DNA of 64,000 nucleotides, taken from Saccostrea cucullata (Eukaryota). This document shows, piece by piece, positions 12,901-15,900 of the stretch (the stretch's first letter is position 1; every line of letters starts with the position of its first letter). A model generated the notes under the pieces. It saw only the letters and a list, made by a program, of their open reading frames with translations. It was not told the DNA's origin and did not search any database. The position numbers and the translations under genes were made by a program. Location: positions 558,001-622,000 of the forward strand of contig NW_026935419.1 of NCBI RefSeq assembly GCF_032062105.1, given 5' to 3'.

Positions 12901-15900
12901 GCCAGTATTTCCCCCTGTCTCTTACCTGTTGTGCTATGAAGTACAGGAGTTCCCCTACAGCTGGTAGAACCCCCTGTCACTTACCTGTTGTGCTATGAAG
13001 TACAGGAGTTCCCCTACAGCTGGTAGAACCCCCTGTCTCTTACCTGTTGTGCTATGAAGTACAGGAGTTCCCCTACAGCTGGTAGAACCCCCTGTCACTT
13101 ACCTGTTGTGCTATGAAGTACAGGAGTTCCCCTACAGCTGGTAGAACCCCCTGTCACTTACCTGTTGTGCTATGAAGTACAGGAGTTCCCCTACATCTGG
13201 TAGAACCCCCTGTCACTTACCTGTTGTGCTATGAAGTACAGGAGTTCCCCTACAGCTGGTAGAACCCCCTGTCACTTACCTGTTGTGCTATGAAGTACAG
13301 GAGTTCCCCTACAGCTGGTAGAACCCCCTGTAACTTACCTGTTGTGCTATGAAGTACTGGAGTTCCCCTACAGCTGGTAGTACCCCCTGTCACTTACCTG
13401 TTGTGCTATGAAGTACAGGAGTTCCCCTACATCTGGTAGAACCCCCTGTCACTTACCTGTTGTGCTATGAAGTACAGGAGTTCCCCTACATCTGGTAGAA
13501 CCCCCTGTCACTTACCTGTTGTGCTATGAAGTACAGGAGTTCCCCTACAGCTGGTAGAACCCCTTGTCACTTACCTGTTGCGCTATGAAGTACAGGAGTT
13601 CCCCTACAGCTGGTAGAACCCCCTGTCACTTACCTGTTGTGCTATGAAGTACAGGAGTTCCCCTACAGCTGGTAGAACCCCCTGTCTCTTACCTGTTGTG
13701 CTATGAAGTACAGGAGTTCCCCTACATCTGGTAGAACCCCCTGTCACTTACCTGTTGTGCTATGAAGTACAGGAGTTCCCCTACATCTGGTAGAACCCCC
13801 TGTCACTTACCTGTTGTGCTATGGTACAGGAGTTCCCCTACATCTGGTAGAACCCCCTGTCACTTACCTGTTGTGCTATGAAGTACAGGAGTTCCCCTAC
13901 AGCTGGTAGAACCCCCTGTCTCTTACCTGTTGTGCTATGAAGTACAGGAGTTCCCCTACTGCTGGTAGAACCCCCTGTCACTTACCTGTTGTGCTATGAA
14001 GTACAGGAGTTCCCCTACATCTGGTAGAACCCCCTGTCACTTACCTGTTGTGCTATGAAGTACAGGAGTTCCCCTACATCTGGTAGAACCCCCTGTAACT
14101 TACCTGTTGTGCTATGAAGTACAGGAGTTCCCCTACAGCTGGTAGAACCCCCTGTCACTTACCTGTTGTGCTATGAAGTACAGGAGTTCCCCTACAGCTG
14201 GTAGAACCCCCTGTCACTTACCTGTTGTGCTATGAAGTACAGGAGTTCCCTTACTCTTGGTAGAACCCCCTGTAACTTACCTGTTGTGCTATGGTACAGG
14301 AGTTCCCCTACATCTGGTAGAACCCCCTGTCACTTACCTGTTGTGCTATGAGGTACAGGAGTTCCCCTACAGCTGGTAGAATCCCCTGTCTCTTACCTGT
14401 TGTGCTATGAAGTACAGGAGTTCCCCTACAGCTGGTAGAACCCCTTGCTTCAGTTTCCCGTTTTTCACATTCTCTCTGATGACTTCTGTCAGGATAGCAA
14501 TGGATTCCGAGGCGTTCACACTCTCATCCAGCTCTTCTGCATTTCCAGCAATCAAGCCAATTACACGGGCTGCCTTAGTCTTCCTGGATTCAAATTAAGA
14601 AATGTAATCTCTGTTTAAACTTACGCACCAATTGAAACCATATTGCAGTACAAGCCTCTTTCTTCAGATTCAAGAATTTTAAAGATTTACTGTCAATATC
14701 AAAAATTACTTTTTGTTCGGTAGTCTTTTTTAAAATTACTGTACATACTTATTACATATATGTATATACTGTTTCAATCACAAAAAAATCTGAAGCTTAA
14801 AAGTAGCGCTCAAATTCATTATTATATTAGCCAATTTACTCACACGTCTAGATGTTGAGTTTCCTTAACAACTTTGGCAAGCACTGACAGGATGTGATGC
14901 TTGGTGAGTTGTGTAGCCACCTGAGGATTGGTTGAGATACCTGTCAGATAGTGAAGTAGGTGGATCCTTTTCTGTGAGGGTGGTCCCTTTTCATTGATTG
15001 ACAGCCCATCATAAATGGCCTTGATATGCTTAGAGAGCTCTTTCTCTGACATAGTCACCATTTTTTCAGCTAAAATTGAATTGTCAGTAATACAGTATTA
15101 AATATTCAAAATTAGCAAACAGATATTAGGTAAAATACATGTATGTTCTATTTAGATGATTTCTTAATGAACATGTAGTAAAAGGAACTTGCACATAAGA
15201 AATGACATTTTAATAACAAAACTAATCATATTTTATTTGTACAACAAAACATGGTTACAGAGAAAAAGTTCATTATGATTTTAACCTTTACTGTAAGTTA
15301 CAGCAAAATGACTTTCAAGCCCTGTAGTTTCAAATATATTATGAATTATCAGATATCATTTATCGTTACATGTATAATGAATCAAAATTACTGTATACAG
15401 GGATATTTTTTCGCCCTGTGTTATACTCGCCCTTTTGCACTTGTGAACAATTTTGCCCCGTTTTAAATTTGCCCAGTCATAGTTCTGTTTAAGAAATTAT
15501 GTTGTGTAATTTGAATTCCTCCAGTTTTAAATTCACCCTATCAAGAAGAGGGTGAAAAGGGCAAAAATAAAATGGAGGTGAAAATTTCCCTTTGTACAGC
15601 ATTGGTTAAATCCCAAACTTATGTAACCACATATACATGTATATGTATAATCTGAATGTTTACCAGGAAATGGTGGAACAGGCAGGATTTTGGAATCAAA
15701 CTTTGCTGTCCCTGGTTTCTGAATCTGAAATTAAATGAGGAAACTATCAGATTCTGTTAGAAATAATTTAAAATGCATACCATAGCATATACTTGTATTT
15801 CTTTATTTTGAAAAATTAAAGTTTTTATCATAGCAGTAAAAAATTGTATAGATGTAGCTCGGAATTAATATCAACAAACAAATTCATGCATCAACTTGCA

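Follow-up and report, generated by a model that had tools for sequence, protein, structure and literature searches.

The ULK4 gene of the oyster Saccostrea cucullata carries, at the end of exon 13, a 5' splice site that is followed by a long tandem array of copies of itself, which raises the question of which of these donors is used and whether the copies contribute to the transcript or to the protein. The array lies within a 64,000-nucleotide stretch of contig NW_026935419.1, which was analysed as a whole and is referred to here as the window.

The ULK4 coding span was located at 3925..20033 on the minus strand by isoform mapping and consists of 30-31 exons; all four RefSeq isoforms of Saccostrea cucullata align to positions 20033-3925 of the window, with introns of the GT-AG type, the shortest of which is 97 nt. 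A 30-nt cassette exon at 16194-16223 is present or not among these isoforms, and alternative acceptors 15 nt apart are found at 8354-8369. The window also contains a 157-nt satellite array within ULK4 intron 19 (9999-10930) and a 166-nt satellite array at 58185-59389. Exon 13 (187 nt, 14397..14583, minus strand) was placed by homology and isoform mapping, and its 62-aa product matches a RefSeq ULK4-like protein of Saccostrea cucullata at 100% identity, with identities of 58-97% to eight other hits. Homologues of this product carry PF23606, which appears to fit the placement of the exon in a HEAT region by the initial annotation of this DNA. The GVLPA motif occurs once in 58 of the 60 compared proteins, is absent from two short ones and is repeated in none. 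Read-through open reading frames that share the FVAQQ variant with Magallana proteins extend beyond the donor into non-repeated sequence, and, judging from these sequences, their lineage appears to be without the array.

Analysis with TRF of the window identified a repeat with a period of 59, 26.1 copies and 96% matches at 12911-14444, minus strand. Listing of the units resolved this minisatellite (12911..14444) into 26 head-to-tail units of 59 nt, save two of 57 nt, each comprising the last 48 nt of exon 13 and the first 11 nt of intron 13, the first unit being the real exon end with its donor, which is the final 48 nt of exon 13. TRF, unit structure and the mapping of exon 13 thus agree with the initial annotation that the array was made of a ULK4 exon end plus its donor. 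The motif CAG/GTAAG is intact on the minus strand in all 26 units, with GT positions from 14396 (the authentic site, directly after 14397, the final base of exon 13) to 12925, so that the estimate of about 25 extra donors was also correct: there are 25 beyond the authentic one. The authentic donor, identified by isoforms, RNA contigs and scoring, is CAG/GTAAGA (14391..14399, minus strand; eight of nine consensus positions), and the copied donors (12920..14340, minus strand) consist of 21 CAG/GTAAGT (9/9) and four CAG/GTAAGA. Donor-to-donor steps are 59 nt, except for two 57-nt steps with one common 2-nt deletion, in the units at 14281..14337 and 13811..13867 (both minus strand).

The description of the units as 48 nt of exon plus 11 nt of spacer therefore holds for most of them but fails for these two of the 25 copies, in which the supposed mini-exon measures 46 nt and breaks the frame. 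Likewise, a spacer beginning with GT and ending with AG is found in most units, but there are four spacer versions: GTAAGTGACAG in 17 of the 26 units, GTAAGAGACAG in five (the authentic and the last unit among them), GTAAGTTACAG in three, and GTAAGTGACAA, which lacks the AG, in one. The A/D variation noted in the GVLP[A/D] peptide is present, but four further copies are altered in other ways. Between the last donor and the true acceptor (TTGCAG/G) of exon 14 (12754..12837, minus strand; isoforms and RNA contigs) lie 88 unique bases (12838..12925, minus strand), which are likely the pre-expansion intron; intron 13 is now 1559 nt long.

Four of 24 sequencing runs were aligned to positions 14386-15100, a stretch holding a single unit, in which a joint that goes back 59 nt reveals tandem copies. 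DNA run X1 yielded three contigs with this joint, run X2 from the same sample showed the preceding unit as loose ends, and library X7, which belongs to another study and is RNA by guess, yielded two contigs with the 59-nt head-to-tail joint. Depth over the unit in X1 and X2 was several-fold to about 20-fold higher than over the flank, a ratio that gives no copy number. Because about 5 in 100 exon bases differ between the aligned samples and the window, and intron 12 is different in X1 and X2, these samples are independent of the assembly. The 59-nt junction in contigs from two unrelated samples demonstrates that the array is real and no invention of the assembly. That an assembler invented or much inflated it has next to no probability: the copy number of 26 does come from a single assembly, short-read contigs giving no copy number, but the units form a mosaic of variants, and the joints in X1 and X7, the loose ends in X2 and the raised depth in X1 and X2 all speak against it. 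No second haplotype or second copy of exon 13 was found in the assembly. The unit variants GCT/GAT, +6 A/T and +7 G/T of the window were found again in X1 and X2, suggesting from sequence comparison that the array is likely older than the divergence of these lineages.

Both the RefSeq isoforms and the RNA contigs indicated that the first donor is used. The junction 14397 to 12837 is present in all four isoforms, which are predicted models, and in both RNA runs (X11 and X7, from two studies) one contig per run passes through all of exon 13 straight into exon 14. These runs represent a related lineage with nine differences in exon 13, rather than the window's individual, and contigs lose rare forms, so that a leak below roughly tens of percent stays invisible in them. 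Library X7 also contains tandem 59-nt units, which may stem from precursor RNA, from DNA or from leaked transcripts. Read mapping can be misled at such a locus, as a short junction read fits any of the 26 donors.

Use of a later donor has a predictable consequence, since a premature stop codon with introns downstream is expected to trigger nonsense-mediated decay. As the initial annotation had foreseen, the first unit contains an in-frame TAG (14367..14369, minus strand), which is met by read-through or from any later donor; from each of the 25 later donors, translation would end at this codon after 618 aa instead of 1304 aa. As 17 introns lie downstream of this TAG, transcripts from later donors are expected to decay. 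The authentic donor scores 12.2 bits versus 12.6 bits for the CAG/GTAAGT copies, and 21 of the 25 copies, the nearest one included, match the consensus better than it does. The locus is a natural test of donor choice, as had been proposed. With a first site this strong, a small leak through the copied donors to decay is possible; a large leak was not seen.

These donors might instead act as an expression dial, with the second and third donors taking a share of transcripts into decay and with array length or the +6 base of nearby copies tuning the level of ULK4. We regard this as unlikely, despite the 9/9 consensus of most copies, nearest included, against 8/9 at the authentic site, the 618-aa stop, and the retention of the array in related lineages with some unit variants in common. 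According to the available portion of Borensztajn et al. 2006 (PMC1557585), nearby copies are used in IFI6 and CBS, and perfect downstream sites in F7 minigenes captured 70-90% of splicing, but from a much weaker first site. In ULK4, by comparison, the RNA contigs are unbroken across the first-donor junction, the score gap is small (12.2 vs 12.6 bits) and there is no sign of selection on the donors. Because only the nearest copies are used in the cited cases, total array length should carry little weight. A broader version, in which perfect copies downstream of a real donor that is slightly weaker would send a measurable share of ULK4 to decay and hundreds of oyster arrays would form a hidden, fast-mutating layer of expression, is speculative and quite improbable; if true, it would mean hidden expression variation that is readable by long-read genotyping.

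The initial annotation had further read the array as repeated in-frame mini-exons. Under this reading, 48-nt cassette exons would lengthen the HEAT region by 16-aa repeats, an instance of exon birth by duplication, and indeed 23 of the 25 copies offer 48 nt free of stop codons, and a strong donor follows each of them. It foundered on the acceptors. Scored with a matrix derived from the 30 acceptors of this gene, which treats true sites generously, the true ULK4 acceptors reached 3.8-13.9 bits (n=30), whereas the spacer AG reached 4.6 bits in 17 units, 2.6 in five and 6.0 in three. The pyrimidine fraction upstream of the spacer AG was 0.27, compared with 0.47-0.87 at all 30 true acceptors, and this AG overlaps the preceding donor; the initial annotation had itself observed, correctly, that the acceptors are poor and that 11-nt introns are too short to splice. 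The usable acceptor and spliceable intron that tandem cassette exons call for are thus both lacking. Because two of the five AGs inside one unit that could define a cassette are in frame, the fit to 16 codons is not striking. Changes among the copies comprise six amino-acid-changing codon variants, three silent ones (35 vs 13 sites) and one frameshifting deletion; they look neutral, with no coding constraint apparent, in what is a weak test on few changes. No 48-nt junction was found in the contigs of the four aligned runs and no repeat of the peptide in the 60 proteins, so that neither coding constraint, in this weak test, nor transcript inclusion marks the copies as cassette exons, and we consider the mini-exon reading very unlikely.

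Recursive splice sites, in which a strong acceptor is fused to a donor, are known from very long introns. The initial annotation had likened each CAG/GTAAG to such a combined site, a zero-length exon through which the intron is removed in steps, and the motif is indeed present in 26 of 26 units. As an acceptor, the CAG preceding each donor scored 5.5 bits in most units, which is higher than one of the 30 true sites, with a pyrimidine fraction of 0.53. However, CAG/GT is the plain donor consensus, this acceptor is weak, the intron is only 1559 nt long, and steps of 59 nt would be shorter than any intron of the gene (minimum 97 nt), although steps of several units are possible. The final mRNA would be identical either way. 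Recursive splicing was accordingly judged extremely improbable.

The origin of the array is suggested by its edges, where GGGG is found both upstream (14441..14444, minus strand) and downstream (12911..12914, minus strand). All four aligned runs have CAG in place of the window's CAA immediately upstream of the array, and with CAG the exon-intron match would reach 7 nt. An intronic minisatellite was likely born by slippage between these short G-runs and may then have grown by unequal exchange, a combination that fits the unit variants and the deletion, which are scattered and common to several units. Concerted evolution with the exon was also considered, but the data did not demonstrate it: one of 48 sites is variable within the unit versus 13 of 139 outside it (p = 0.12). 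Splicing likely commits to the first donor and would remove the whole array, making it silent, and rare leaked transcripts would be cleared by nonsense-mediated decay. We therefore consider it probable that the locus is a minisatellite of the exon 13 end and its donor, likely slippage-born and likely silent through first-donor commitment. It has the features of the exon-boundary minisatellites termed 'mirage' or F7-type, and is likely harmless: minisatellite-size units stand head to tail (59 nt x 26.1, 96%), the end unit extends across the real exon-intron boundary, the splice signal is repeated in the intron copies (CAG/GTAAG in 25 of 25), and normal mRNA arises from the authentic site in both RNA runs and all four isoforms, minor forms being invisible there.

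Exon 13 is not alone in this gene. A clear local copy of the donor in the next intron was found at three of 30 ULK4 donors (exons 3, 13 and 27) and at none of 30 acceptors. The exon 19 donor, considered as a fourth, was one point over the shuffle limit and was discarded as a chance match to satellite. At exon 27, TRF and the local-copy scan identified a second duplication of an exon end with its donor (73 nt x 2.1, 5669..5823, minus strand), which has a second GT at 5700 and a degenerate third copy with GT at 5595, minus strand; the second donor, if used, would shift the frame. Fragments of the end of exon 3 recur in intron 3 (18760-18850, minus strand), with a second ACTACAG/GT 24 nt downstream (GT 18801) that would add eight residues in frame and is unused in all four RefSeq isoforms.

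The initial annotation had also called for a genome-wide scan for repeats at donors. Three CAGGTAAG spaced 40-60 nt gave 901 matches versus 30 for the reversed pattern, and broader donor motifs gave 3609 versus 613, with acceptor motifs giving 59 versus 67 and, when broadened, 610 versus 771, all counts being swollen by long arrays as well as by a dispersed 55-nt satellite. The first 100 of the 901 matches represented 19 loci, five of which (L037, L039, L041, L049 and L054) are that one satellite, containing donor-like CAGGTAAG and no adjoining exon. Another five begin where homology confirms an exon end: three, among 15 scanned, in a 5'-nucleotidase, a short-chain dehydrogenase and a Reeler protein (weak), the other two at exons of an IP3 receptor. 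About six more are exon-like without homology. The two IP3 receptor exons (L045 and L046, C3617) belong to one gene, each with a 59-nt donor array.

With broader motifs, each fitting five of 30 ULK4 sites, arrays were classified by score and visual inspection; over one and the same contig range, exon ends accounted for 10 of the 17 donor-motif arrays and exon starts for four of the 16 acceptor-motif arrays (p = 0.18). A donor-only bias, which the raw counts had favoured, was dropped in view of this array count and because acceptor arrays are real. Among 29 of about 35 listed acceptor-motif arrays, six members of dispersed families being omitted, about 10 were at exon starts and seven were actually donor arrays. 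Pfam matches backed 12 of the 27 exons examined, seven of donor type and five of acceptor type, and in a blind 600 kb, four of 90 arrays were of donor type by eye, one of them the 76-nt array on the window's own contig that is described below. Exon-boundary arrays, at donors and acceptors, are thus common in this genome, and a rough extrapolation gives hundreds of them. The blind 600 kb did not single out exon boundaries as hot spots: of 360 classifier tests, 19 were hits, mostly repeats within coding exons, a rate not clearly higher than the 3.3% null (about 12 expected).

Several individual loci were recorded. The window's own contig (C17556) contains an array of 29 copies of a 76-nt unit made of exon end and donor (L110:1536-3754) and a smaller one (L110:279-335). 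At L043 (C2965:617000-623000), a short exon apparently lies between an upstream acceptor array and a downstream donor array. One and the same acetyl-CoA carboxylase-type exon is present, together with its 53-nt donor array, at two places separated by 71 kb (L059 and L060, C1160), through either duplication or assembly redundancy.

The layout is already known from published cases, and alone the ULK4 array is of little weight, being one more donor-spanning minisatellite. A literature search of limited coverage found no report of such arrays in oysters or bivalves, which is weak evidence, and no donor-spanning case was found in the available part of PMC10078293. The available text of Borensztajn et al. 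2006 (PMC1557585) describes a 37-bp VNTR in intron 7 of human F7, the first unit of which spans the donor and in which only the most upstream site is used; in minigenes, only perfect downstream sites competed. The oyster array resembles it in having the first unit over the boundary, intact copies after the real donor and use of the most upstream site, but the F7 unit has four exon and 33 intron bases, five to nine copies and a weak donor, whereas the oyster unit has 48 of 59 bases in the exon, 26 copies, and perfect-consensus donors in most of them. As cited in the same text, IFI6 (6-16), CBS intron 13, LMNB2 and PDGF also contain donor-spanning minisatellites, that of IFI6 having 25 copied donors as in the oyster; in IFI6 the two nearest downstream copies, and in CBS two downstream copies, are used too, unlike in the oyster, where only the first donor was seen at the sensitivity of contigs.

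In amphioxus, 'mirage' minisatellites in Adh3 and the globins BflGb6 and BflGb9 are described at both exon ends with splicing undisturbed, and were proposed as a route to intron gain (PMC3087553, Ebner et al. 2010, in the portion available). Like the oyster array, they repeat an exon-intron boundary in tandem, again in a marine invertebrate; length polymorphism and somatic instability were demonstrated in amphioxus. Internal tandem repeats in human duplicated genes (PMC2812944, as far as its available text describes) are likewise minisatellites on exon-intron boundaries, but they led to changed proteins or new introns, neither of which is seen in the oyster array. The many oyster arrays, at donors and acceptors and with varied unit sizes and site strengths, offer a natural panel for asking if use of the first splice site prevails in animals other than mammals.
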